Assembly (NCBI GenBank): GCA_049969675.1
Contig: JBMFOP010000001.1
Span: forward strand, 32,001-96,000
Source of the DNA: Myxococcota bacterium
Lineage (GTDB): Bacteria; Myxococcota; SpSt-1050
DNA length: 64,000 nucleotides
Reading direction: 5' to 3'
The notes beneath the pieces are model-generated. The model was not told where the DNA came from and made no database searches. It saw only the letters and a list, made by a program, of their open reading frames with translations. Position numbers and translations under genes: made by a program. Position 1 is the stretch's first letter; every line of letters starts with the position of its first letter. Below are positions 17,951 to 59,400 of the stretch, piece after piece.

Positions 17951-18556
17951 ATGATTAAGAGAATTTTTTGCTTGATTTTAGTACTATTGAACCCTTTACT
18001 TTATGTAGAGTGTTCAGATAGTAACTCTGACAATAATCTATCAGATGCGGGTGCGGATGTATTAATAAGTGGCTGCAATACAATATCCGATTGTTCAGAT
18101 AAAGAGACTAAAGACTCTGTCTGTGTTAAGAAAGGTTGTGTATCAATAGGAGAGGCCTCAAAGTTTCTCCATATAGTATTTTATCCAAAATACATCAGTT
18201 CTGTGGTAAATGATATCAGTTATTTTACATATTATTTCTTTTATCCACTTGATGTGGAAGGGAATAATTTATCCTGTGAAAAACTCCTGAGTGATTTCAA
18301 CTTTAGTCAAAAGAGAGACCTCAACATTATTCAATCATATGAAAAACAGGCGACCATCTCAGCTACTGGCTCAGAGATGTATACACTCCCGTTGCCCACG
18401 ATAAAAGACTCTCTATTGTTCTTCATCTTTTATCAGGAAAATGGGAGTGTAGTTGCTATTGGTTGTAGCGAGAAGATTGATACTACATCAAATGATTCAG
18501 TGGGTATCTTCCCCTGCAAACCAGAGCAGATAAATGCCTGTCTGGGAGAGTTCTAA
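17951..18556 (+). CDS. Secreted Cys-containing hypothetical protein, possible lipoprotein
   Basis: Signal-like N-terminus ending VEC, SDAGAD linker, several Cys. Confidence 0.6.
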   Translation: MIKRIFCLILVLLNPLLYVECSDSNSDNNLSDAGADVLISGCNTISDCSDKETKDSVCVKKGCVSIGEASKFLHIVFYPKYISSVVNDISYFTYYFFYPLDVEGNNLSCEKLLSDFNFSQKRDLNIIQSYEKQATISATGSEMYTLPLPTIKDSLLFFIFYQENGSVVAIGCSEKIDTTSNDSVGIFPCKPEQINACLGEF

Positions 18557-19494
18557 TCTGAGTTACCATTTGTTCTTTCAAACTCCCTTTTTAGATTTTT
18601 ATAGTTGTCCGCGGTATAGCAGAGTGTATCTGTTATCTTATAGGTCTTATCTTCAATCTCTATCCTGGTCTGTCTGATTCTACAGGCGGCATTTATAGAA
18701 TGACCAATTTCACCAGAAAGTTCAACTATCTTATCAAAGTTGTCAGTATTTTCAGAGGATCTTTCAGCGGCTATCTGTGCAGAGGTAATTGTGGCATCAG
18801 TGGATTTGTCTAAGAGCTCAAAGGTCTGTTCTTCTTTAATTTTCTCTCGGAGTTGTTTTTTTGTCTTAGGATTATCTTCTGACAACTCTTTTGCATCTTT
18901 AGCAACAGCAGTTGTATCCTGCTTTATCCTCTTTGCCTCATCAAATCCAAATTTTTCATTTTTAGCAATATTTTTGGAATCTGACACAAGATTGGCAGAG
19001 CTATTTGTTAGAGAAGCACCGATTAATATGCCTTCTTCTCCTTTTTTCTGATAACCAATCAATGCACCGGTGGATGTCAATCCACTCTTAAGTGCGGTTT
19101 CTTCTATACTGTTGCCGATAGAACCTGCAGCCAGAGAGTTAGCAATATTTGCCCCTCTTTGCCCATTTTTAACCGCACCAATTGAAGTAGCAGACCCAAC
19201 AGCACACATTTTTGCTCCTGCTAAAATGAATGAATCCCCTGAGCCAGTTTTGATAAAGTTATTAATGTCTCCTGATGCAACCCCAGCAGTTTTTGAGACC
19301 AAATTTAAGGTTGTCGCTCCTTCGTCATATCCCATCTGTTTTAAATTTTGAGATGCCCCTTCTATTACACCTATTCCCGCAGATGCATAATCTCCTGTTG
19401 CCACATCTAAACCGGCACATGCATAATCTCCTATGTATTTATATTTTTCTGGTAAAAGATTATCGGTTGCATAGTTTAATAACTTTCCTAACAT
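18553..19494 (-). CDS. Gly/Ala-rich hypothetical protein, candidate T3SS translocator or pore-former
   Basis: No signal peptide; Gly/Ala-rich weakly hydrophobic helices in the first half, charged helical C-terminal half; 1 bp from upstream gene. Confidence 0.5.
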   Translation of the reverse strand: MLGKLLNYATDNLLPEKYKYIGDYACAGLDVATGDYASAGIGVIEGASQNLKQMGYDEGATTLNLVSKTAGVASGDINNFIKTGSGDSFILAGAKMCAVGSATSIGAVKNGQRGANIANSLAAGSIGNSIEETALKSGLTSTGALIGYQKKGEEGILIGASLTNSSANLVSDSKNIAKNEKFGFDEAKRIKQDTTAVAKDAKELSEDNPKTKKQLREKIKEEQTFELLDKSTDATITSAQIAAERSSENTDNFDKIVELSGEIGHSINAACRIRQTRIEIEDKTYKITDTLCYTADNYKNLKREFERTNGNSD

Positions 19495-19495
19495 A

Positions 19496-20248
19496 TTAGT
19501 CCTCCTTTTCTTTTAATCTATCAATTTCACTACTATTCCCTGTCCAATATGCATAAGCGTATTGATCTGTTTCTGTCATAAGCTTGAGATTTGTCTCGTT
19601 TTCCACTTTTTTGGTATTTCTTTCAATAGAGGCAGCTAATCTTATACAGTTGCTGGCATCAAAATTAAATGCATCTATATCTCCGCTCTTTAACTTCTGA
19701 ACCTGTTCTCTATAGTTATCAAGCCCTTTACCTTTATTTGGAGTCTCTTTATCTCCTCCCCTTTCTTCAATTTCTACAAAGTTTTCAAGAACAGTTAGAA
19801 GACGTTGCTTTTCAGATTCACTCATATATGGATTATTTAAAGAATCGTTGATATTTTTTATGGATGCCTGAAGGCTTTTGAGATTTCTTCTCAATTCTTC
19901 TTCGTTCTTTGCTTTATTGTTAACATTTCCCAGCCCTGCTACATTGACACCCATCCAGTCCAGAGATTTGTCCAATACAGTGCCAATAGGAACAATTGTA
20001 CCAAGTGCATGACCACATAGATTAAATAGACCTTTTCTCCTTTTTCTCTTTTTTTGAGCGGACTGATATTTATTTTTATAATTTTCAATAATTTTTTCTA
20101 TGTCCTGATCTGTCAACTCTGGTAAATACTCCTTTCTCTCTGTTTGATTTCTCTGGTGATTCTGTACTTTTGGTGATTGATATTGAATATCTGAATATAC
20201 ATTATAGATATTATCAGTACTATAATTGATGTTATTACTAATTTCCAT
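19496..20248 (-). CDS. Hypothetical protein, candidate T3SS translocator or effector
   Basis: Polar N-terminus, basic cluster QKKRKRRKGLF followed by a hydrophobic stretch and coiled coil; RBS GGAGG favours ATG 20248 (ORF track starts at 20260). Confidence 0.5.
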   Translation of the reverse strand: MEISNNINYSTDNIYNVYSDIQYQSPKVQNHQRNQTERKEYLPELTDQDIEKIIENYKNKYQSAQKKRKRRKGLFNLCGHALGTIVPIGTVLDKSLDWMGVNVAGLGNVNNKAKNEEELRRNLKSLQASIKNINDSLNNPYMSESEKQRLLTVLENFVEIEERGGDKETPNKGKGLDNYREQVQKLKSGDIDAFNFDASNCIRLAASIERNTKKVENETNLKLMTETDQYAYAYWTGNSSEIDRLKEKED

Positions 20249-20263
20249 ATTACCCTCCATATA

Positions 20264-20809
20264 TTATTTCATATTGTGAATTATAGTCTTTAAGGCATCA
20301 TCTTTAGATTTATTATAATTGGAAATTAATTCAATATTTCTCTCTTCCATATGCATCTGGTCAATAAGTTTTTGCATAAGCGCCGGATTTTCATTTAATG
20401 CCTTAAGTAATTTTTCATCTCCATTTCTAAATGCAATAAGGAGTTCTGTTCCGCTCTTCTTTGAATAATCCTCAGTTGATTGATTGGTAGTAGAATTATT
20501 GGCGTTTGTTGTGGAGTTGGTCTGATTATCTGATGATGTTTTATTGGTTGGTGAAGCGGTTGTGTTAGTTGATTCATTGGAATAGTCTCTTGCCTTTGCC
20601 GGAGCAGCTTTCCATTTCCTCTTATGATCCTTTGCCTTTGCCGGAGCGGGTTTAAAATGCATCTTGCCGTTGTTCTCAACCAGGTCATCTGAGTTTGACT
20701 GGTTTACATTACCGTTAGGAGATGGCGTCTGATATACACCATTCTCATAAGTCATCTCTGAATCGGTCGTGTAATTGTTTGTGTTGGTCCCTGTTACTGT
20801 TGTACTCAT
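20264..20809 (-). CDS. Protein with a T3SS needle/rod-like (SctF/SctI) C-terminus and long Ser/Thr/Asn-rich N-terminus
   Basis: Last 41 aa align without gaps to the PrgI C-terminus as I recall it (PAL...SNxxKxxxDxxxxIIxN); strong RBS AGGAGG. Confidence 0.6.
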   Translation of the reverse strand: MSTTVTGTNTNNYTTDSEMTYENGVYQTPSPNGNVNQSNSDDLVENNGKMHFKPAPAKAKDHKRKWKAAPAKARDYSNESTNTTASPTNKTSSDNQTNSTTNANNSTTNQSTEDYSKKSGTELLIAFRNGDEKLLKALNENPALMQKLIDQMHMEERNIELISNYNKSKDDALKTIIHNMK

Positions 20810-29585: not shown

Positions 29586-29688
29586 GCCTATCTTTTTTCA
29601 AAACATTTATAGTTCTTAAGTCTGTAATTCTTGCAAAATATCTGGTTTTGTAATATTATTGATGCCTCTTTGTGTGAAAGGAGGATTA

Positions 29689-30204
29689 ATGGGCAAGAGT
29701 CCATCAGAGATAAGGCAGGAACAGAGAAAGCCAGTAAAAGTATTTATTAATTTCAGGACAATAGACCAGTTTTATTCTGAAATAGGGACGAATCTATCTC
29801 TCGGAGGTGTATTTGTCAGGTCATCCAATCCGCTTCCGGTAGGGACCGAGATTAAGATTAGTTTTAATATCCCGCAGTTTGGCTGTTATCTGGAATCTCA
29901 GGGAGTGGTGGTGCACAATGGGACTCTGGAGAATCCAGGTATGGGTATAAAGTTTAAGGGGTTATCAGATAGGGCAAAAAAGCTATTGCAGGATGTGCTG
30001 GATCACGAATTGTTGCCGCCAGGGGAAGAGCCGTCAGATGGAGAAAAGGGTGAGAGAAAAAAGACTAAAGTTACAGTGACTGTTGAGTCTCAGAATAAAG
30101 GAATAAAAAAGGCTAAGAGTTCAAGGACTGTTAGTAAGAGAGTTTCAAAAAAGGAAATATCAAAAGATTCAAAAAAAACTAAATGTGCAAAACGAAAGAG
30201 GTAG
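29689..30204 (+). CDS. PilZ-domain protein with Lys-rich tail
   Basis: RQEQR (RxxxR) and NLSLGG (D/NxSxxG) c-di-GMP motifs; PGMGIKF. Confidence 0.85.
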   Translation: MGKSPSEIRQEQRKPVKVFINFRTIDQFYSEIGTNLSLGGVFVRSSNPLPVGTEIKISFNIPQFGCYLESQGVVVHNGTLENPGMGIKFKGLSDRAKKLLQDVLDHELLPPGEEPSDGEKGERKKTKVTVTVESQNKGIKKAKSSRTVSKRVSKKEISKDSKKTKCAKRKR

Positions 30205-30226
30205 AGTATAGTATCATAGGGTTTTA

Positions 30227-31045
30227 ATGATAGTAAGAGAGCCTAAATATAGTGGTAAATTTTATCCAGAAAAGCCCAGAGTCCTCATCTCTATGTTGCA
30301 GGATCTGTACAATAGGGTTGAATTTTCCCGGAAGAAGATAAGGTCTAATGGAATCCTGTTGCCACACGCCGCATATCACTACTCCGGGCATGTGGCTATG
30401 TCTGTCTTGAAGTGCATAGAAATTCCAGAGAATATAATAATCTTTTGTCCAAATCACAATGGACTCGGGGAGGATGTAAATATTGTCTCTGAGGGACGCT
30501 TTATAACACCTATTGGAGATGTTGCTATAAATTCGGATATTGCAAGGGGTATTATGAAAGATATCCCCGAAGTAAAGGAAGATATAAAGTCTCATCTGAT
30601 AGAACATTCAATTGAGGTGCAACTCCCGTTATTAAAATACCTTAGAAACGATGTAAGAATTGTTCCCATACTTATTAAGAAACTTAAAGCAAATATTCTT
30701 ACAAAATTGATATCTGATTTTGCAAATTTCTTTAAGGGTTCTGGTGCTTCTGACATTCTATTTCTCTCAAGCAGTGACCTCTCTCATTATGAGAGATATG
30801 ATGAGGCAATAAGGAAGGATAAGCTGCTCTTAAAATATGTTGAGAAGATGGATATCTATGGGCTCAAAAAGGTAATTGAAGAAGAACATATCTCTATGTG
30901 TGGATATGAGGGCACAGCAATCAATATGGAGTTGTGTCGTCAGTCTGGTGCTACTCAGGGGATAATTAAGAGGTATGATACAAGTAGTTCAAGCGATGGG
31001 AATTATGAGAGTGTTGTGGGGTATGCAGGGGCCTGTTTTGTATAG
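30227..31045 (+). CDS. MEMO1-family protein (AmmeMemoRadiSAM protein B)
   Basis: PHAAY, PNH, EHSIEVQLP, SSDLSHY, SMCG, VVGY. Confidence 0.92.
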   Translation: MIVREPKYSGKFYPEKPRVLISMLQDLYNRVEFSRKKIRSNGILLPHAAYHYSGHVAMSVLKCIEIPENIIIFCPNHNGLGEDVNIVSEGRFITPIGDVAINSDIARGIMKDIPEVKEDIKSHLIEHSIEVQLPLLKYLRNDVRIVPILIKKLKANILTKLISDFANFFKGSGASDILFLSSSDLSHYERYDEAIRKDKLLLKYVEKMDIYGLKKVIEEEHISMCGYEGTAINMELCRQSGATQGIIKRYDTSSSSDGNYESVVGYAGACFV

Positions 31046-31047
31046 TT

Positions 31048-32601
31048 ATGGATAATGCAAAAGTAAAGGCTTTATATAAAGGTGATATATCCAGAATTAA
31101 TATCTGTGAGCTTTTGATAAGGCTTGGGGTCTTAAAAGAGAATGGATATGTGGAGATAATTATTGAAGAGTTGAGGATAAAAATTTATCTATATATGGGG
31201 GATATTGTTAATATTGAATCTGATGATATCAATTTCTCACTTGCGGGATTCTTAAGGAAGAGGAATAGAATCAGTGAAGAGCAGTATGCAGATGTAAAGA
31301 AGATGGTGCAGGCTGGAGATAATAGTACTGCAGAGGTACTCCTGACCCTCGGGTTAATCAAACCATTTGAGGTTATTCAGTTCATAAACGAATTTCTTAT
31401 ATGTGCTCTCGGCAGGATAGCGACTTTTTCAAAGGGGATTTATGTTTATTACAGGATTGAACAGGATGTCTATCCTTTCCCGGTAAATCTGAGATTCAAC
31501 ACAGTAGATGCTGTAAAGAATGTGATATTTAATCATCTCCCCGATGAATATTTTATAAGGCTCTTTGCAAGACATAATGAGATTGATGTCATATTGCGAA
31601 GTTCAGGGCTGACCATTGAGAATGCAAGGCTTGGTCCAAAGGAGTTGCGATATCTTAAAGCCATCTGTTCTTCAGGGAAATTTGTAGATTATCTCCCTGA
31701 AATTAATCCCACTAACTCAGAACATATCTATAAACTCAGGGCTGCATATTATTTTAAGTTGTGTGCATTTATTGAGATGAGGAGAGGGAAAGAGAGTTTT
31801 GAATCAGTATTCCATATTGAGAACCTGAAAGATAATCATTTTGGGGAATGTGGAGTGGTTCCCCCGTCAGAAAAGGCTTTAGAAAAAGAGGGATGTAAGA
31901 TTGATGATGAGGAGGAGAAGAAGATATCAGAGCTGACAGCCCTCTTTGAGGAGATGAAGAAGAAGAATTTCTTTGAAAGATTGAATGTCAGCGAAGATGC
32001 ACAGGATGCCCAGATAAAGAAGGCGTATCTCCTGCTTGCAAAGAAGTATCACCCTGATATTGTCACTGTTAATGCTTCAAAGAGGATAAAGAAGTGTTAT
32101 GAGGATATATTTGCACTTATCAACGAGGCGTATCAGAGGCTTGAGAAGGCAGATTCAAGGAGAGATTATCTGGAATCAATAAAACAGAGTGAGGATGGAA
32201 AGTCTGATGTGGATATAGCGAGTATTCTGGAAGATGAGGCAAAATTTATAAGGGCTAAGGCACTTATCAAGAACAACAGAAATATAGAATCTGGACTTCA
32301 GATACTTGAAGATATAATGACGAGAAATCAGGATGATGAGTACAGGATTTATTATCTCTGGGGGAAATTCCTTAAAGAGAAGCCTACAGACCCAGCCGTA
32401 ATAGGGAAGATAATAACATCTCTTGAAATGATTGCAAAGAAGAAGGAGCTTCCGGACCTCTTCCTGTTCCTCGGTTACCTATATAAAGCAGTCAGGAATG
32501 AGGAGAAGATGATAGAGGCATTCAAAAGACTTCTAAAGCTCGAGCCGAATAATACAATTGCCTCTATTGAGATTAAACTATATGAGAAGAAGAAGAGATG
32601 A
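31048..32601 (+). CDS. DUF4388-like / DnaJ J-domain / TPR protein
   Basis: KKAYLLLAKKYHPD J-domain; C-terminal TPR-like LFLGYLY...LKLEPNN. Confidence 0.8.
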   Translation: MDNAKVKALYKGDISRINICELLIRLGVLKENGYVEIIIEELRIKIYLYMGDIVNIESDDINFSLAGFLRKRNRISEEQYADVKKMVQAGDNSTAEVLLTLGLIKPFEVIQFINEFLICALGRIATFSKGIYVYYRIEQDVYPFPVNLRFNTVDAVKNVIFNHLPDEYFIRLFARHNEIDVILRSSGLTIENARLGPKELRYLKAICSSGKFVDYLPEINPTNSEHIYKLRAAYYFKLCAFIEMRRGKESFESVFHIENLKDNHFGECGVVPPSEKALEKEGCKIDDEEEKKISELTALFEEMKKKNFFERLNVSEDAQDAQIKKAYLLLAKKYHPDIVTVNASKRIKKCYEDIFALINEAYQRLEKADSRRDYLESIKQSEDGKSDVDIASILEDEAKFIRAKALIKNNRNIESGLQILEDIMTRNQDDEYRIYYLWGKFLKEKPTDPAVIGKIITSLEMIAKKKELPDLFLFLGYLYKAVRNEEKMIEAFKRLLKLEPNNTIASIEIKLYEKKKR

Positions 32602-33899
32602 GACTATCGTGTAAGATCGCATATGCTGTATTGGTTGCATCATTTGTCCTCTCTGCCTGTCAGACAGCCACTCATCTTAAGCCAGAGGGCTGCCAGCAGC
32701 AGATAATATTTGAGATACAGGGTATATCACATCCTGTAAAAGATATTTCAGAAAACAGGGCTCTATTAAGGCTTGAGGGAGAGATATCTGTGGCATCGGT
32801 GGGGGATATCATTCCTCATAACAATGTAAAGAAGGCGGCGTCACAGGGGAATATAGTTCAGGGTGGAAGGAGTATAAATAATGAAGGTTTTGATACCCTT
32901 TTTGAGAATGTAAAGGAGTATCTTAAAGCCGATGTCACTATTGCAAATTACGAATCACCAATTGCCCCCATAAATGGTTCATCAGGGCAACCTTTTGTAT
33001 TTAATTCTGATACATCCCTTCTTAGAGCCGCAAGAGATGCAAATATCAATCTGTTTAATATAGCAAATAACCACATCTATGATCAGGATATAAAAGGGTT
33101 TTTAGAGACGATAGAGAATTTTGAATCGGAGAAGATAAGATATATAGGCACATATACCGATGATAAGCCACGCCCTCTATTCCTGGAAAGGAATGGGATC
33201 AGGGTGGCATTCTTTGGATTTACCACGCTCTTAAATAATCAACCCGATTACGGCCGGCTCAGGGAGTATGTTAGAAAGTATATAGGAGAGAAGGATACAG
33301 AAGAGATCAGAAAGGCTAAAGAGAAGGCAGATATTGTGATTGTTTATATACACTGGGGAGAGGAATATAAGAAGGAGCCAGACGAATCACAGATCAGTCT
33401 CGCAGATGAATTGATTGAGGCTGGCGCAGATATTATAATTGGTGGACATCCACATATACTCCAGCCATTGAGTCTTATAGCCTCAAATGATATGCGGATT
33501 GTCCCTGTGGCATTTTCAATGGGAAATTTTATCTCAAATCAGAGCCGAAATTATGCATTTCCTATATCCGGTGAAGATGAGGGGAGGACAAGGGACTCCG
33601 CAATATTGAGATTTAAGCTAAAAAAATATTCTTACAACGACTTTTCCTTTACTGTGGTCTCGGAACTCTATTTTGTGCCTCTCTGGACATACAACAATGA
33701 TATCCAGTTTTCAAAGGGGGTTGAAAAGAGACTTAAGATATATCCATTCCCTATCACGGAAAGGATAGAACAATTGAATAAGGCAATTGTGGTAGAGAAG
33801 GATGAAAATAGGAAGAAGGAACTCCTTCTGGAACTTGAAAATCTGTTGTTGAGGCTCAAATTGATAAAGGGTACACTCGGAGAAGATTATGTAAGATAG
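32598..33899 (+). CDS. CapA/PgsA-like metallophosphoesterase lipoprotein
   Basis: Lipobox LSAC; VGD, NYE, ANNHIYD, HWGEEY, GGHPH, SMGNF. Confidence 0.9.
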   Translation: MRLSCKIAYAVLVASFVLSACQTATHLKPEGCQQQIIFEIQGISHPVKDISENRALLRLEGEISVASVGDIIPHNNVKKAASQGNIVQGGRSINNEGFDTLFENVKEYLKADVTIANYESPIAPINGSSGQPFVFNSDTSLLRAARDANINLFNIANNHIYDQDIKGFLETIENFESEKIRYIGTYTDDKPRPLFLERNGIRVAFFGFTTLLNNQPDYGRLREYVRKYIGEKDTEEIRKAKEKADIVIVYIHWGEEYKKEPDESQISLADELIEAGADIIIGGHPHILQPLSLIASNDMRIVPVAFSMGNFISNQSRNYAFPISGEDEGRTRDSAILRFKLKKYSYNDFSFTVVSELYFVPLWTYNNDIQFSKGVEKRLKIYPFPITERIEQLNKAIVVEKDENRKKELLLELENLLLRLKLIKGTLGEDYVR

Positions 33900-33900
33900 T

Positions 33901-34536
33901 ATGAAATACTCTCCAATTATATGGGCATCAGCATATCTGATAAGCAGGTTAATCAGGAGTTACAGATATGTAGTCAGTAATGATGCTATTGTACAGAATT
34001 GCAAAAGACCTCCGGTCTTTGCTCTATTCCATTCTACTCAGATGTTGGTTGCAAGTTATAGAACCAATTTTAAGACCAATATATTGGTAAGTCTTTCAAA
34101 GGATGGGGAGATAGCAGCACAGGCATTACAGATGCTCGGCTTTGGAGTGGTAAGGGGTTCTTCTTCAAAAAGGGGTAGAGAGGCACTTGATGAATTGATA
34201 TTAAAGGTCAGATCCGGAGAATCAGCCGCTATTACAGTTGATGGTCCACGGGGTCCCTGTGAAGAGGTAAAGAGTGGAATAATAAGACTTGCGTCAGAGT
34301 CAAATGCGCCAATAGTTTGTGTATCAGCTGCTGCAAAGGTTATGTATAGATTAAAGAATTCCTGGGACCGTTTTATAGTTGCACCCCCTCTTTCAAAGGT
34401 CTTTATCTCTTTTTCGGACCCCATCACTGTCGATAGAATAGTGGATGCTGAAGAGATAAAATTTTTTAAGAGTCTAATAAAAACAAAATTGCGCTCCCTG
34501 TTTGAGGATTCTCTCAAAATGGTTCAAAAAATTTAA
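33901..34536 (+). CDS. DUF374 / lysophospholipid acyltransferase-like protein
   Basis: SKDGE, VRGSS, TVDGPRGP, SWD. Confidence 0.88.
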   Translation: MKYSPIIWASAYLISRLIRSYRYVVSNDAIVQNCKRPPVFALFHSTQMLVASYRTNFKTNILVSLSKDGEIAAQALQMLGFGVVRGSSSKRGREALDELILKVRSGESAAITVDGPRGPCEEVKSGIIRLASESNAPIVCVSAAAKVMYRLKNSWDRFIVAPPLSKVFISFSDPITVDRIVDAEEIKFFKSLIKTKLRSLFEDSLKMVQKI

Positions 34537-34569: not shown

Positions 34570-36378
34570 TTGCATAGGTATTATAAAGAGAATCAGGATA
34601 TTGAAGGACAAAGGCTTGCCTGTGGTAAATATAGTCGCAGGGTTCTACAGGATCTGCTTAAACTATCAGATATTCATTGTAATATAATTGCAATGGGTTG
34701 GGTTGGAAATCGTATAGTGATTGATATTCTCCCACAGGGTAAAAAAGAGGACTCACTAATCACGCTTTATATTGCAAAGAGGGTAGATACTCAACCATCC
34801 CTTTTAAAGACCGACTTTCTGGATATATACTACAGTAGTAATAAGAATAACGAGGACTTTGCAAGACATATCCTATCTCTTAAGATTAATGATATCACTT
34901 TCGCTCAGCTAACGAAGATCTTAAAAGATGACCCTGAACTTGGAGACCCATCTCTCTCTATGCCCACATCAGAGGCGGCGGATAGGCCAGAGAATCATCT
35001 GGACAGCTGGGGTGGAAGGGATTTATACGCCAATTTCTTCGCCGAGGGAGAATTTGCCAGAGGACAGTTAGATTCGGTTAATATCTATGAGAATTGTGTC
35101 TTTATTCAACATTCTGATATAGAATGCGTCTCGTTAAGGCCAAATCTGGATTTGAGACTCATTAAGTTTCTGGTAAGATATCCATGGCTCTCCCCAAATC
35201 CAGAGAAATATAGTGGTATCAGACGTGATGAACTCCCGGATGTTAATAAATTCTTCTCTACTGACCTCAGGGAGAAAGATATTATAATGGGGCATAATAA
35301 GGTTAGAGATGCACTTGAATATGTCCTTAATAATGTTAAGAAGAAGAATATCTTCCTCTCCAATACCTGCACCCCTGTTGTGATAGGGGAAGATGTAGAA
35401 TCTTTAGTAAAAAAGGCTAAACAGAGGAGAAAGGACCTCTTATATCTTACAGTCACTCCTCAATCAATGGAGGTAGTATTAAAGGACTTATTTAAAATTC
35501 CATCTAAAAGAATGAAGAGAAAGGCTCATAATCTGATTAATCTTATGGGTTATGAAGATGATAATTACATAAGACAGTTAATAAAGTTTCTAAAAGATTT
35601 AGGAATTGAAGTAAATTCTACTGTTATACCTGATGTCTCAGTAAAGACCCTTAATAAATATTTTAAAGGCGGTGTTGATATACTAAAACCAAATTCTCTC
35701 TGGAGCCATCTCTATATGCAACTTAACTCTATGTCTGGACATAAATATATTTCAATTGACTCACCATATGGCTTTTTCGGGACAATCAGATGGATAATTG
35801 AACTCTTAAGAATCCCTGGAAGAAAGATATCTGAGGATGAGATAATGAAGAGAATAAAGCCCGAGATCATTGATAGATATTTGAGATTGAGAGAAGCAAT
35901 GAAATCTATAGGTGTTATCTTCATTGTGAGAAAGGATGAAGTTGGATATCTCACCGATTCTGCTAAGTCGTGGGGTGTACCTTTGATAAAGTTCTTCAGA
36001 GAGATGGGAAGTAAGATAGAGGTATTCATAAAGGCTCAAAGCCTTGAAGAGGCAAAGTCTGCATCAACTCAACTATTAGGTTTTATTTCGGATTATCATA
36101 ATTTTGAGATAAGATATTTTGATTCTTTTGAGAATATGATGAGACTGATAAAGAGTAGTATGGCTCAATTGGTTTTTACAAATCATTCAAATGATTGGAG
36201 GATAACATCGGGGGGAAAGCATTCTCTCTCACTTACGGATTTTGAAGTCGGTTTTGAAGGTGCAATATATACAATGGAAAATATTTTGAACCTCGCAAAT
36301 AATCAATTTTTCAAGAGGTATGCAAGGTATTTACAGAGGGATTTTAAGGGAAGCTATGAAGAGAGAGAACAAAGGTAG
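34570..36378 (+). CDS. Nitrogenase component-1-like protein (NifD/NifE/BchN fold) with N-terminal extension
   Basis: HSDIEC, STDLREKDIIMG, NTCTPVVIGEDV, INLMG, PYGF.GT..W, GFEG; start codon uncertain. Confidence 0.8.
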   Translation: MHRYYKENQDIEGQRLACGKYSRRVLQDLLKLSDIHCNIIAMGWVGNRIVIDILPQGKKEDSLITLYIAKRVDTQPSLLKTDFLDIYYSSNKNNEDFARHILSLKINDITFAQLTKILKDDPELGDPSLSMPTSEAADRPENHLDSWGGRDLYANFFAEGEFARGQLDSVNIYENCVFIQHSDIECVSLRPNLDLRLIKFLVRYPWLSPNPEKYSGIRRDELPDVNKFFSTDLREKDIIMGHNKVRDALEYVLNNVKKKNIFLSNTCTPVVIGEDVESLVKKAKQRRKDLLYLTVTPQSMEVVLKDLFKIPSKRMKRKAHNLINLMGYEDDNYIRQLIKFLKDLGIEVNSTVIPDVSVKTLNKYFKGGVDILKPNSLWSHLYMQLNSMSGHKYISIDSPYGFFGTIRWIIELLRIPGRKISEDEIMKRIKPEIIDRYLRLREAMKSIGVIFIVRKDEVGYLTDSAKSWGVPLIKFFREMGSKIEVFIKAQSLEEAKSASTQLLGFISDYHNFEIRYFDSFENMMRLIKSSMAQLVFTNHSNDWRITSGGKHSLSLTDFEVGFEGAIYTMENILNLANNQFFKRYARYLQRDFKGSYEEREQR

Positions 36379-37699
36379 AAAATTCTCTCAGAGGTTACTG
36401 AGCCCATATATGGTGGGAGTCTATCTCGGTGTTAATGCTGTGAAGGATTTTTATCTGCTTGTAGATGGGCCGGATTGCTCATATATGAAGACCCAATATA
36501 TAGGAATGAATCAGGACTTCTATGCCAATCTTACAAATCTATCTGGTTTTCACAGAATAGGAAATACTGCATTACATCCAATTATGATGGCATCTTCAAG
36601 AGAGGAGAAGATTCTCTCTGCTTTATTAAAGATTGCAAAAGGAGAATTTGTCTCTGCGGTTGGTATCACTCCGATGCCAATGGCAGCGGTTACCGCGGTA
36701 GATTATAGTCGGTTATTAAGGGAGGTGAGCAGGAGATATAAAAAACCAACATTTGAGTTCAAGAATAAATCACTCTCGGGGGATTGGATGGATGGTTACA
36801 TGGAATTCGGGAAGGTGCTTGCATCCAGTATGGAGATTGGGAAGGTCAGGAAGAGACGAAGGTCTGTGGCTATAATCGGTTATTTATATGATAGAAACGA
36901 ATATGATAATATTGCAAATATCGCTGAGCTCAAAAGAGTCTTTCAGGGGATTGGTGTAAATGTCGCGGGTATATGGTTTGATGGCGGCGGTTTTATGGAT
37001 CTAAAATCAGTATCTGAGGCTGACCTGATTATTTCGTTTGGATATCTCAGAGATGCTGCGAGAATCTTATCAGAGCGGCTAAAGACTCCGGTGATGGAAT
37101 TTGATTATCCAGTGGGGTTTGAGCAGACGGGTGATATATTAAAGAGGGTATCTGAATACTTTGAAATCAGAGACGCATCCACCTTCATTGAGAGAGAGAC
37201 AGAGGCAATTGTGAGGAGAGTAGAGTCACTTATAGAACAATACTTAATACGACTCAGGGTGTTTTATTGTGGGGACCCGATTCTATTTAATTCAATTAAA
37301 TCAATGCTTGAACTTGTTGGAATGAAGATTGAATATGCCATTATTTCCAATACATCTGAGAAGTCATCTTATGTAAAGGAGCCAATTAAGAATATTATTT
37401 TTGAACCGTCTATCAACGATGTCTTTGAGGTTGGTCTAAAGATGGCAAGAGAGGATAAGATAGACCTATATGTCGGCAATAGTGATATGAGTTCATACTT
37501 TATCGGGAGTGGGAAGGCGGCGGTTGAGATTGGATTCCCTTCTTATTTCTCGCATTGTATCGCAGAAATCCCTTATGTGGGTTATAGAGGGTATATGCAT
37601 CTTCTGAACAGGATTATAAAAGAGCTCAGATTTGCTGAGGTCAGAAAGGTCTTTAGAGAGCAAGGGATAGAGTCATTCATAAAAAATAAAATTTTATAA
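36356..37699 (+). CDS. Nitrogenase component-1-like protein (NifK/NifN/BchB fold)
   Basis: GVYLGVNAV..LLVDGPDC, VAIIG, ELKR...IGV.V, YPVG.EQT, GFP, GYRG; overlaps previous gene. Confidence 0.8.
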   Translation: MKRENKGRKFSQRLLSPYMVGVYLGVNAVKDFYLLVDGPDCSYMKTQYIGMNQDFYANLTNLSGFHRIGNTALHPIMMASSREEKILSALLKIAKGEFVSAVGITPMPMAAVTAVDYSRLLREVSRRYKKPTFEFKNKSLSGDWMDGYMEFGKVLASSMEIGKVRKRRRSVAIIGYLYDRNEYDNIANIAELKRVFQGIGVNVAGIWFDGGGFMDLKSVSEADLIISFGYLRDAARILSERLKTPVMEFDYPVGFEQTGDILKRVSEYFEIRDASTFIERETEAIVRRVESLIEQYLIRLRVFYCGDPILFNSIKSMLELVGMKIEYAIISNTSEKSSYVKEPIKNIIFEPSINDVFEVGLKMAREDKIDLYVGNSDMSSYFIGSGKAAVEIGFPSYFSHCIAEIPYVGYRGYMHLLNRIIKELRFAEVRKVFREQGIESFIKNKIL

Positions 37700-37768
37700 C
37701 TTCTGGATATTGCTAACTGTAGATTTTTCTTGAAATCTTTTTCAGATTGTGTTAGGGTTTCTGCCGCT

Positions 37769-37849
37769 GCCGAAGTGGTGGAATTGGTAGACACGTACGT
37801 TTGAGGGGCGTATGCCAGCGGCGTGTGGGTTCGAGTCCCACCTTCGGCA
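37769..37849 (+). tRNA. tRNA-Leu (GAG)
   Basis: Acceptor stem GCCGAAG/CTTCGGC, D-loop GGAATTGGTAGAC, anticodon arm TACGT-TTGAGGG-GCGTA, variable arm, GGTTCGAGTCC; CCA not encoded. Confidence 0.96.
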
Positions 37850-37983
37850 TTTTTTTTTGCCTTTACTTGCTTTTTGAAATTATAATTTTACATTATTAAT
37901 ATTTACAATGGATTGAGTAAAGGTTATTATTTATCTGTTTTGAGGGTTAGCTCTGGTCTGTCTTTTGAGGCAGGTAAGAAGTC

Positions 37984-46595: not shown

Positions 46596-46650
46596 ACATA
46601 ACTTAAATTTTGTTTTACATCGCGCAAATTTTAATATAGTATATGTGGTT

Positions 46651-48282
46651 ATGAACCGATTATTTAAATTTTTATTTACCAGTTTAGTCTTATCAGCAAT
46701 TTCCTGTTCGGTTGATTACTCCCTGCTAAATAATAGACAATGCGACAGTGAAGGTAGATGTGTCGCTGGATATGTATGTGATAGAGCGACTATGACCTGT
46801 GTCAGAGAAGGCTCTATGCCCGGAAATGATGCTGGGACCCTGCCCGATATCATAAGAGATGAAATCTCAATTTTGGATACAGAAATGCCAGATTCAGAAG
46901 AAGATGCTGGCTGCAGACCTACCAACAATGGGATAGAGATATGCGATGGGATAGACAACAACTGTGATGGCAGAACGGATGAGAACTATGTATGCGGAAG
47001 CTGTACCTTAACTAATTCCATTACAGAGCAATGCAATGAATCTACAAAGTGCGATAAATGCTTTATAGTGAATGGTGAAAAATATAGATGTGTCTCTGTG
47101 GACGGTTTAGATTTTAACTGGCGTAAAGAATCTGAATTGATTTGCGATTCTTCAAAATCTATAAAGGCAATAAAATGTGAAAACATCTGTCAATTGTGTG
47201 ATGGAAATAAATTTTCTGACCCATTTATCATTCAGAATGAATCCTGCGATGGAAAAGACAACAATTGCGATGGAAAAATAGATGAGGGAGATATATGTCC
47301 CACCAATAATATATGTGTAGGTGGAAAGTGTATAGAAAGACCATGTCAGAAGAAGGAGGATTGCCCCCCGGAGAAAGTCTGTAAAGAGAATAAATGTCAA
47401 TCCTGCACAGAAGTCGTGGATGATTCGCTGTGCGGTTCAGGTAAGATATGTATCAATGGTGCCTGCATAGATGGCGATTGCCATCAGAATACTGATTGTT
47501 CTGGTGGTATCTGTGTATCCAATAAATGTTGTACAGGGTGTTGTGCAAAAAAGGATGATTGTCCAGCAGAACTTGTTTGCAAAAAGGGACTAAATGAACA
47601 AATCGGAAATTGTGAGAGTTGCACTGATATAATAGATGACCTGTTATGTGGTTTTGGTTATATCTGTGAAGGCAATAAATGTATAAAAGGTGAGTGTCAT
47701 CCTAATATTGGATGTCTCCTTGGGAAGATATGTGTCAACTATAACTGCTGCAATCCCGGACCGACCTGCTGTAATAAGGATGGTGACTGTAAATCAAATA
47801 TGACCTGCACCCAGAATCATACCTGTGATTGTAAGCCACTCTTTGGAGATTGCAACAATAAATATGATGATGGCTGCGAAAAAGACCTTTGAAGTGATAT
47901 CAACAATTGTGGAGTATGTAATCAAAAATGTGTCTTTCCCAATGCAGACCCCGAGTGTGTAAACGGTAGATGTCTGATTAAGAATTGCAAACCAAATTTT
48001 AAGGACTGCAATCAAAAACCAGAGGACGGTTGTGAAATAGACATTTCAAAGGATATACTTAATTGTGGTGATTGTAATTCACCCTGTTCAGCGGATAATG
48101 CAACGGTAAAATGTGAGCAGTCAAAATGTGTAATATCTGCCTGTAATCTCGGATTTGCAGATTGCGATGGGAATTATAATAATGGTTGCGAAATAAATAC
48201 AAATACTGATAGTAAAAACTGCGGAGACTGCGGAAATAAATGTAAACCAAATGAAATCTGCAAAAATGGCCAATGTAACTGA
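46651..48282 (+). pseudogene. Cys-rich repeat lipoprotein interrupted by an in-frame TGA at 47890-47892
   Basis: Lipobox-like AISC; E.CDG.DNNCDG..DE repeats; after TGA the same frame stays open for 129 codons of GCE....D..NCG.C repeats until TGA 48280-48282. Confidence 0.8.
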
Positions 48283-57834: not shown

Positions 57835-59400
57835 ATGCACTTTGTAATAAGATTTGAACCGCCGGTGGAAGATGCAAAATACAATAAATATTCGCATATA
57901 ATACCTGTCATTCCAGATGTTGAGATAGGAGAGGGGGATACGGTGAGCTTCAGGGGGGAGGAGACCCTTACAAGAGAGGAGTTCTATAGTATAGCTGATA
58001 CACTTGCAAAAAGGGGTGTTGATTTTGTAATTGAGACCACGGGTATTTCATTTATTAATCCCGACAATCTAAAATATATCTTCAAAAGATATAGGATAAA
58101 GGAGATAATCATTAAGATATTCAGTCTAAACTTCACGGTAAATGATGATTTTTTTAGAGAGATCGGTACCTCTATAAAATCACTTATGGGATTGGATGCC
58201 CTTTTAAGGACTGGATTTAAAGATATAAGTTTAATTACCTACATCTATGAGGGGAATTACTTAAACAGACTCAAGTCCATTTATGATTTTAAGAAGGATA
58301 AGGGACTCAAATATTTATATATAGAGCTGGATAACACACTATCCATTGAAAGAAGAAACTCTGTTTTTAAGGAAATCCTCTCCCGATTCGGTGAGCAGGA
58401 TGATATTATTATAAGGAATAATGATTTTGAGATTAGATTGAGAGATAGAGAGAGAGAGGGTATAGAAATAAGGACTGACAGAGAAAACGGCATCCTGAAT
58501 CTTGTTTTGAGGAATTTTTGCACAAATAATTGCACATTCTGTACAACAAGGATAGTTCAGATGGCGAATCGTTCACCGCTCCCTTATGATGCAAAAGAGA
58601 GGGTAATCAGGGCTATTGGTGAAGCCTCAAAATCTCTTTCAGAGAAGAATCTTTTAGAGATTGTTGCAGTAGAGCCGCTGGAACATCCCGATATAGTTAG
58701 TATACTTGAAAAGGCTAATGAGTGTGGATTTGAGGATATCAGATTGCTTACGCATGGGAGATTAATCAGGAGTAAGAAGGAGCTAAATAATTTAAAGAGA
58801 TTGGGAGTAAGGGAGATGATTCTCCCAATTGCATTTTATTCACCAGAATCCGCTATGGCTAATGTCAGAGACAGAAATGCCTTTTATGATATGATAAATC
58901 TTTTGGAGTTGATAAAGAATTACAGAGGTATAGATTTCAGATTCAATATTATGCTCTCCCAACAAAACTACAGAGATATTTACAGGATCATCAGATTTTT
59001 AAAAGCGAATAATATAAGTAAATTTAATATCAATCTCGCACTGCCCTCCATTGAGGATGAGAGATTTTATAGACCTTATGCTGTTAAGTTATCGGATTTG
59101 GTAGAATATATAAAAGAGAATTCAGGAGATGAACAACTCAAAGAACATATTGTAAAGTCTTTGAGCTCCATTATTCCAGCATGTATAATCAGGAGGTATT
59201 TCCCGGAGAGGTTTATAATGGAGATCAAAGATATATATGAGAACATCACCTCCACTTCACTGGCTGCAAGGCGTCCGAGCGCAAAAGCCAAACTCAGGGT
59301 TGACTGCAAAGAGAAGATGAACTGCCCGTATGGTAGTTTCTGTGTCGGTGTAAATGAGACATATATAAAATTATTTGGTGATGAGGAGTTTTATTTTTGA
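57835..59400 (+). CDS. Tandem radical SAM protein (degenerate N-terminal domain, intact C-terminal domain)
   Basis: CTNNCTFC at mid-protein; N-terminal half has barrel-like motifs without the Cys triad; C-terminal C...NC....C.G....Y..LFG..EF. Confidence 0.8.
   Translation: MHFVIRFEPPVEDAKYNKYSHIIPVIPDVEIGEGDTVSFRGEETLTREEFYSIADTLAKRGVDFVIETTGISFINPDNLKYIFKRYRIKEIIIKIFSLNFTVNDDFFREIGTSIKSLMGLDALLRTGFKDISLITYIYEGNYLNRLKSIYDFKKDKGLKYLYIELDNTLSIERRNSVFKEILSRFGEQDDIIIRNNDFEIRLRDREREGIEIRTDRENGILNLVLRNFCTNNCTFCTTRIVQMANRSPLPYDAKERVIRAIGEASKSLSEKNLLEIVAVEPLEHPDIVSILEKANECGFEDIRLLTHGRLIRSKKELNNLKRLGVREMILPIAFYSPESAMANVRDRNAFYDMINLLELIKNYRGIDFRFNIMLSQQNYRDIYRIIRFLKANNISKFNINLALPSIEDERFYRPYAVKLSDLVEYIKENSGDEQLKEHIVKSLSSIIPACIIRRYFPERFIMEIKDIYENITSTSLAARRPSAKAKLRVDCKEKMNCPYGSFCVGVNETYIKLFGDEEFYF

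Follow-up and report, generated by a model that had tools for sequence, protein, structure and literature searches.

The window analysed here is a 64,000-nucleotide stretch of the genome of a Myxococcota bacterium (GCA_049969675.1, contig JBMFOP010000001.1, positions 32,001 to 96,000), and the subject is a pair of overlapping genes in it, A and B, for the two subunits of a nitrogenase-like enzyme. The pair is real and intact and belongs to an already described class, the Group VI nitrogenase-like enzymes; its value lies in its scattered, single-copy, tetrapyrrole-free setting. Together with a NifH-type ATPase (H) encoded elsewhere in the genome, A and B would form an ATP-driven [4Fe-4S] reductase which, on balance, we place in the maturation of a His-Xaa-Ser repeat peptide of the HxsA4 type. 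Whether A and B act on the peptide directly is a closer question, with the odds tilting slightly to the negative. Contigs, genomes and related loci are designated by C, G and L followed by a number.

A (34570..36378, plus strand; 602 amino acids (aa), from a TTG start downstream of a GAGG site) and B (36356..37699, plus strand) are two overlapping open reading frames (ORFs) on the same strand, flanked by a DUF374 gene upstream and a tRNA-Leu gene downstream. The open frame of B begins at ATG 36320; the start is most likely ATG 36356, judging from a 447-aa database protein and from homologues that begin at the same point, so that B probably has 447 aa and overlaps A by 23 nt. Both proteins matched PF00148 (101 bits for A and 149 bits for B; cut-off 28.6). 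Their AlphaFold (AF2) models, with a predicted local distance difference test score of 79 for A and 91.5 for B, matched nitrogenase component-1 folds in Foldseek (best E 1.5e-15 and 2.3e-23, respectively), namely NifEN, NifDK, MarDK and BchNB, with 11-19% identity to the solved chains. The top VIA-align match for A was MarD (Z 20.2, root-mean-square deviation 4.5, 364 aligned residues), and a protein search with A found 26 proteins of 29-100% identity. These results confirm the two overlapping component-1 genes described in the initial annotation, which had been made from the sequence alone. All scores of A and B on the NCBIfam nitrogenase, DPOR, COR and Cfb models were at most about an eighth of the cut-off; the best for B was BchZ (47 bits, cut-off 529).

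A and B were aligned with annotated NifD, NifK, NifE, NifN, BchN, BchB, BchY and BchZ sequences from named plasmid records. Cys186 of A (codon 35125..35127, plus strand, in an HxDxEC motif) and Cys267 of A (35368..35370, plus strand) fall in the columns of the second and third P-cluster cysteines of NifD, the first being missing. Cys53 of B (numbered from 36320; codon 36476..36478, plus strand, with Asp52 adjoining) occupies the column of the middle P-cluster cysteine, shared by NifK Cys95, BchZ Cys35 and BchB Asp36, and the other two P-cluster positions of B read P/Y and P. In A, the columns of Cys275 and His442, the ligands of the iron-molybdenum cofactor (FeMo-co), read Lys373 and Thr556: these ligands are absent. 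The ligand set first reported, with two P-cluster-type cysteines in A, one in B and none of the FeMo-co ligands, is therefore borne out by the alignment.

Among 85 A-type proteins, Cys186 was kept in 83 (the other two having gaps), Cys267 in 84 (one gap), Glu185 in 81 and either Asp or Glu at position 183 in 82; Asp542 was found in 84 and Arg544 in all 85. Cys53 of B was kept in 76/76 homologues and Asp52 in 70/76. Since these residues are conserved across relatives, the reduced ligand set is a family trait and not a sign of decay. The invariant cysteines number two in A and one in B, that is, three per A/B pair. By analogy with DPOR/COR, a single [4Fe-4S] cluster at the A/B interface, held by the three cysteines and a carboxylate, is likely, and the single simple cluster proposed initially is in this way probably correct. 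Some A-type relatives differ from A at two columns: a cysteine stands at column 373, that of the NifD FeMo-co cysteine, in 15/85, and an extra cysteine, not present in this genome, stands at column 182 in 19/85.

The initial annotation had described the pair as an orphan with no NifH-type reductase and possibly a different electron donor, and had proposed a genome search for NifH homologues. A profile search of the genome (99.91% complete, 188 contigs, 3.05 Mb) found one full NifH-family gene, at C75:2030-2827 (E 1e-83, 281 bits), and the orphan claim fails. The four other NifH-family matches scored 32 bits or less, and A and B were exactly the two component-1 matches in the genome. The C75 protein is a NifH homologue with GxGxxG and the equivalents of Cys97 and Cys132: it has the Walker A motif GKGGIGKS and both cluster cysteines, in GVGCAGRG and DVVCGGF. 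It scored below the cut-offs of NifH, CfbC (294.7 against 402), BchL and BchX. Throughout the genus (four genomes) the H gene lies downstream of a PEGA-domain gene and is convergent with recG.

The distribution of H was followed in a phylum sample of 161 genomes, 18 of which carry B (the carriers). H was present in 18/18 carriers, on the contig of B in 14, unlinked in three (those of this genus) and in a fragmented assembly in one; in the Elusimicrobia phylum it was present in 4/4 B carriers. Related loci were taken from the best 80 of 209 B relatives in GTDB genomes, kept as 78 loci. A NifH-like gene lay within 10 kb in 49/78 of them, and H was present in 41 of the 54 loci having at least 4 kb upstream, typically as H-A-B or as an H-A fusion. 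We consider it very likely that the C75 ATPase is the electron donor to A/B.

Two sets of loci held several copies of these genes. The Elusimicrobia contig G166:C16 (L071, L082) has four H-type genes along with eight matches of the B type. G167, a 0.9-Mb bin labelled Nanoarchaeota archaeon (L045, L168, L182-L187), has two A/B pairs and one further B, which makes five component-1 genes, as well as a precursor of the HxsA4 type; a NifH-type gene was not found in this bin, which is small and probably incomplete.

A tree of H sequences (78 rows) placed the H of this genome in a 64-row clade (support 95/92), sister to BchL, together with H genes adjacent to A/B homologues and the Elusimicrobia sequences GWF2_62_30 and GWA2_66_18; NifH, BchX and a Group IV-type Treponema protein fell outside it. 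This tree was run without CfbC, MarH and IsrH, as a quick tree and a careful tree, the latter read in its upper part. In a FastTree analysis of 43 B-type and 12 reference sequences, the latter on long branches, the 43 B-type rows formed a clade (support 98) with GWF2_62_30. This is a genome named where Group VI was defined, with homologues of the group reported from fourteen Myxococcales genomes, in the portion of that study available to us (10.1101/765248). The closest named relatives (59-66% identity) are labelled Deltaproteobacteria/Myxococcota, one of them Bdellovibrio. As far as sequences can tell, it is close to certain that A, B and H belong to Group VI.

The label "group IV-like" in the initial annotation does not hold, as both trees place the proteins with Group VI Elusimicrobia sequences; a Group IV assignment is rejected on these trees, whose references did not include Cfb, Mar and Isr sequences. 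The phylogeny with known sets that had been suggested was thus carried out in part, with Nif and Bch references, and identified Group VI. The view of the pair as a nitrogenase-like heteromer distinct from Nif, DPOR/COR, CfbD and Mar is supported by scores, trees and ligands. Placement in a characterised clade with a cognate reductase elsewhere had been named as what would overturn that view: the reductase is indeed elsewhere in the genome and the clade is a described one, but it has no characterised member according to the accessible text of a 2026 review (PMC13474568).

The genome contains genes of the His-Xaa-Ser peptide system scoring over cut-off: HxsA4 (NF038313, 69.6 against 55), HxsB (TIGR03978, 537.9 against 370) and HxsD (TIGR03976, 56.6 against 50). 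Contig C74 has hxsB, a double radical S-adenosylmethionine (SAM) gene and a gene for a precursor of 123 aa, of the (His-Gly/Ala-Ser)n-Trp, or HxsA4, type, whose 15 His-Xaa-Ser repeats end in Trp; HxsD is located on C43. No HxsC over cut-off was found in the genome (best 117.8 against 267.9, with 14 weaker matches), and for the other radical SAM proteins the best named family was HxsC or HxsC4, always under cut-off. On C74, a 66-aa ORF directly before hxsB (L129, C74:11621-11821, minus strand), kept in two congeners, looks by eye like the beginning of HxsD.

In the 161 genomes, HxsB over cut-off was found in 18/18 carriers and in 12/143 non-carriers, ten of these 12 being one family whose loci have short canonical repeats and a C-terminal domain. 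HxsA4 over cut-off was found in 16/18 carriers and in 2/143 non-carriers, G087 (with one component-1 match) and G033 (where the match is a 481-aa frame). A further carrier, G004, has a plain repeat peptide below the HxsA4 cut-off, so that 17/18 carriers have a precursor. HxsB was on the contig of B in 9/18 carriers, 4-41 kb away, and the peptide gene lies directly 3' of B in G016, G095 and L083, which are close kin and not independent. In the Elusimicrobia phylum (101 genomes), 4/4 B carriers have both an HxsA4-type peptide and HxsB, three of them on the contig of B, as compared with 2/97 non-carriers (G257 and G227). The precursors have a common leader motif, and several have a twin-arginine-like segment, which may be a twin-arginine translocation (Tat) export signal.

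Gene neighbourhoods point to the same enzymes. When the proteins of this genome were counted as neighbours in 75 more distant related loci, the eight commonest after A, B and H were HxsC-like radical SAM enzymes, a radical-SAM-like protein and HxsB; co-occurrence profiling with radical SAM families, a check put forward initially, proved to be the right lead. The counterparts of the radical SAM neighbours lie here on C20 (30 loci), C16 (19), C61 (18), C74 (14), C132 (12) and C31 (9), and the radical-SAM-like 870-aa protein on C20 and HxsB each had homologues in 9/75 loci. The C20 radical SAM enzyme matched genes adjoining H or B in G025, G112, G133 and G169; as a single-protein query, too insensitive for a profile, it was found in 6/25 carriers at E 1e-30.

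As the counterparts of these neighbours are on separate contigs, the radical SAM-H-A-B operon of the relatives is split here over C20, C75 and C1. An assembly artefact is ruled out, because A/B, H and the Hxs genes have the same flanking genes in congeners. The 62 radical SAM matches of the genome (in 3.05 Mb) include homologues of the relatives' neighbours, and none adjoins A/B. In six pairwise comparisons of A, B and H, the proportion of nonsynonymous differences (pN) was 0.13-0.27 against near-saturated synonymous values (pS) of 0.72-0.83. Judged from these sequence comparisons, the scattered parts of the operon persist under purifying selection in this genus. Elsewhere in the genome, contigs C44, C52 and C110 (L135-L137) carry radical SAM genes in three clusters, with four to five genes per cluster; several of these genes are of the B12-binding type by similarity to BchE.

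A also has an N-terminal accessory domain (residues about 10-126; 34597..34947, plus strand, from profile and model boundaries), modelled with confidence as a unit of a helix, five strands and two helices and followed by a linker. The extra domain noted initially is thus real, although its size is about 115-120 aa plus linker instead of about 150 aa. It is duplicated in some NflD proteins. Iterated profiles (best reversed-sequence E 0.023) reached the N-termini of radical SAM enzymes of about 445 aa in related loci and, likewise, the C-termini of large proteins. A profile from A proteins only matched one from radical SAM enzymes only (95.5%, E 1.3e-8), a test not fully independent, as the latter consisted of 14 N-termini gathered by iteration. 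No Pfam family common to 80 domain members was found, and the domain did not match the HxsD profile. Structure searches of the Atlas gave no match with a TM of 0.5 or more by query and nothing usable by features; the whole-chain searches of A covered residues 148-585 only, and the fold of the accessory domain was therefore barely probed. In a complex prediction, the domain and the first 48 precursor residues scored 0.00 (mark 0.32), which speaks neither for nor against an interaction. The 870-aa protein of C20 (L128:3062-5671; G000:C20:32061-34673) contains a DUF483 domain, lacks a CxxxCxxC motif and overlaps the C20 radical SAM gene; some of its homologues in Group VI loci end in the accessory domain.

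A mechanism may be proposed in which A (NflD) and B (NflK) make up the catalytic component of a nitrogenase-like reductase of Group VI. As in DPOR/COR, the ATPase dimer would deliver single electrons, driven by ATP, to the [4Fe-4S] cluster between Cys186/Cys267 of A and Cys53 of B, the fourth ligand being a residue other than cysteine (Glu185 or Asp183 of A, or Asp52 of B). An organic substrate would sit in the empty FeMo-co pocket, with the invariant Asp542 and Arg544 binding or protonating it. Genome profiles suggest that this substrate would arise in the course of maturing HxsA4, the (His-Gly/Ala-Ser)n-Trp precursor. In that scheme the His/Ser repeats would be oxidised or cross-linked by HxsB, HxsD and at least six HxsC-like radical SAM enzymes, and the product would receive two electrons from the reductase at a bond that is unsaturated or aromatic. 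The accessory domain, shared with radical SAM enzymes of related loci, would be a pathway adaptor which recruits the reductase. The sole experimental Hxs work, in the portion available, describes a His-Xaa-Ser repeat with a mass shift of +8 Da (+C, -4H) and a four-gene system with activity against phage (PMC13128918); a low-potential reductase could plausibly act on a His/Ser unit that is oxidised and bridged by carbon. More generally, and a little short of even chances, Group VI may consist of ATP-driven tailoring reductases that reduce the radical-SAM-modified His/Ser units of a (His-Gly-Ser)n-Trp precursor, for instance by dearomatisation or reductive cleavage.

Several observations weigh against the assignment to peptide maturation. 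In this genus neither H nor the peptide genes are physically linked to A/B, and in the carrier G069 (610 contigs) the peptide was not found. Some genomes have the peptide system and no reductase, with no component-1 gene in G227 and G054 and H alone in G257. The carriers are kin (five families and Elusimicrobia), so the co-occurrence counts are not probabilities and the profile overstates independence. The canonical four-gene HXS system needs no reductase, according to the text available (PMC13128918), and Group VI is without a characterised member, as cited above. The accessory domain was undetected by profile search on the orthologous radical SAM protein of this genome (C20:34654); here A alone scores for it, with C20:32061 borderline (E 0.03). 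Lastly, the pair has only three cysteines, and both the cluster and a fourth ligand for it are putative.

The rival that survives best, though we judge it unlikely, keeps the same H/A/B reductase and gives it a non-peptide radical SAM product (a cofactor, metallophore or lipid), the peptide being a fellow traveller or carrier. It would suit the number of radical SAM matches, 62 in about 3 Mb with many B12-binding types among them, and the occurrence of peptide and HxsB without the reductase; the twin-arginine-like segment of several precursors would suit a carrier. However, the commonest neighbours best match HxsC/HxsC4, even if below cut-off, B12-type radical SAM enzymes were the best matches in only 2-3/75 loci, and the peptide gene is often within the same cluster.

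Group VI has been proposed to reduce tetrapyrroles (Meheust et al. 2020, 10.1101/765248, as far as the text was accessible), here to an unknown cofactor, from a scavenged precursor. This would agree with the position of the H clade as sister to BchL and with the DPOR/COR-like ligand pattern. HemB and HemC were not found in this 99.9%-complete genome by a search whose controls were positive in 11/14, and nifB, Mg-chelatase, bchH/I/D/M/F/C, chlG and pufLM had no match in it. HemC was found in 15/25 other carriers, which favours the proposal, and not found in 10/25, including three of three congeners. The accessible text of the original proposal gives uroporphyrinogen synthesis in five genomes only (10.1101/765248). 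Among the common neighbours with a homologue here there were no tetrapyrrole genes, a count blind to genes absent from this genome. The lack of HemB and HemC and the HemC gaps in carriers weigh against the proposal; scavenging of tetrapyrrole precursors is possible, and overall we regard this reading as improbable.

That the pair works with another electron donor, without a NifH-type protein, is very improbable: H is unlinked in all four genus genomes and was not found in the G167 bin, but all four have kept it as an intact gene under purifying selection, this genome offers no other component-1 gene for it to serve, and it is present in all 18 and all four carriers sampled in the two phyla, G167 being small and probably incomplete. 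Least credible of all is that A and B are relict genes of a decayed operon, dispersed and lying amid unrelated genes, as they have no stops, keep all the invariant residues, show pN far below saturated pS and are as similar to their congeners (59-66%) as the neighbouring genes are (59-77%).

Maturation of the HxsA4 peptide remains the reading we prefer, and this genome is a natural test of it: H, D and K are each present once, a tetrapyrrole pathway is lacking, and the His-Xaa-Ser genes are all kept although the cluster is dispersed. The finding names a small gene set and a mass-measurable peptide as a testable candidate substrate. A natural control for the contribution of the reductase is G227, in which contig C20 (G227:C20, Elusimicrobia phylum) has four HxsB-like genes, two HxsA4-type precursors and no nitrogenase-like gene. 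If true, the proposal would mean that a member of the nitrogenase family works on a peptide, and that the pathway matters enough for its genes to be retained one by one although their cluster is dispersed across a 3-Mb genome. In the literature covered, which left subscription journals mostly outside, no published link of nitrogenase-like or Group VI enzymes to Hxs peptides was found; the word nitrogenase is absent from the main text of PMC13128918, and the term Group VI from the part of PMC9447857 that was available.

Around the pair, the genes are unrelated. Upstream lies a run of PilZ, Memo-like, DnaJ/TPR, CapA and DUF374 genes (29659..34536, plus strand, from profile matches), found in identical order in the relatives L008 and L009, DUF374 also in L010; directly 3' of B is tRNA-Leu(GAG) (37768..37850, plus strand). 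A promoter and terminator scan of the locus gave nothing specific. A radical SAM protein at 57835..59400 (plus strand; best NCBIfam match HxsC4, 47.5 bits, cut-off 500) is possibly one of the scattered partner enzymes; it had matches in only 2/75 related loci. The window also has a Cys-rich MopE-like repeat protein (46645-47892) and three adjacent ORFs of no obvious family (18553-20809), with the low-complexity helical character of a type seen beside secretion systems. Profile searches found no nifH, nifB or bch genes in the 64-kb window, as had been reported.

Among known systems, the Mo, V and Fe nitrogenases (Groups I-III) are excluded, as the six P-cluster cysteines, the FeMo-co ligands and NifB/NifEN are lacking; NifB had no match in the genome at E 1e-5. 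DPOR (BchLNB) and COR (BchXYZ), Group V, resemble the pair in fold, in a probable single interface [4Fe-4S] cluster and in an empty FeMo-co pocket, and the B cysteine sits in the column of the BchB Asp and the BchZ Cys. They are excluded in turn: A has two cysteines, lacking the first of the three of BchN/BchY, the scores of the pair are about a tenth of the cut-off (47/529 and 43/490), and there is no chlorophyll pathway and no bch/puf gene. Group IV (CfbCD, Mar, Nfa, Isr) shares the NifH-type ATPase and the component-1 fold, H reaching 295 bits on CfbC and MarD being the top structural match of A. CfbCD (Group IV-B) is rejected on the scores of H (294.7/402) and A (28/268), on the two distinct subunits and on the lack of HemB/HemC; Mar, Nfa and Isr are rejected, as judged without direct tree comparison, on three cysteines only in place of a six-Cys P-cluster set and on the lack of a NifB match, where these systems have a NifB-like maturase (MarB, NfaB, IsrB).

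The characterised HXS system (HxsABCD) and this genome have HxsB and HxsD in common, together with a precursor of His-Xaa-Ser repeats; all three score over cut-off here. The system differs in its precursor, which here is an HxsA4-type peptide that lacks a C-terminal domain and whose 15 repeats end in Trp, in its HxsC, replaced here by six or more HxsC-like paralogues under cut-off, and in having no reductase.

Closest is Group VI. H and B fall in the same clade, with an NflH that has Walker A and two cysteines, a divergent D/K pair with at most four P-cluster cysteines (three here), no FeMo-co ligands, no nifB and a genome rich in radical SAM genes. Published accounts, in the sections available, likewise give no NifB, no FeMo-co ligands and at most four cysteines (PMC13474568) and 0 to 13 nearby radical SAM copies (10.1101/765248), and state that gene context offers little beyond the tetrapyrrole hint (PMC13474568). 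What sets this genome apart from the group is the lack of HemB/HemC and the location of H, the D/K pair and the radical SAM partners on separate contigs, fixed genus-wide; the HxsA4/HxsB link and the accessory domain do not appear in the accessible part of the published account.

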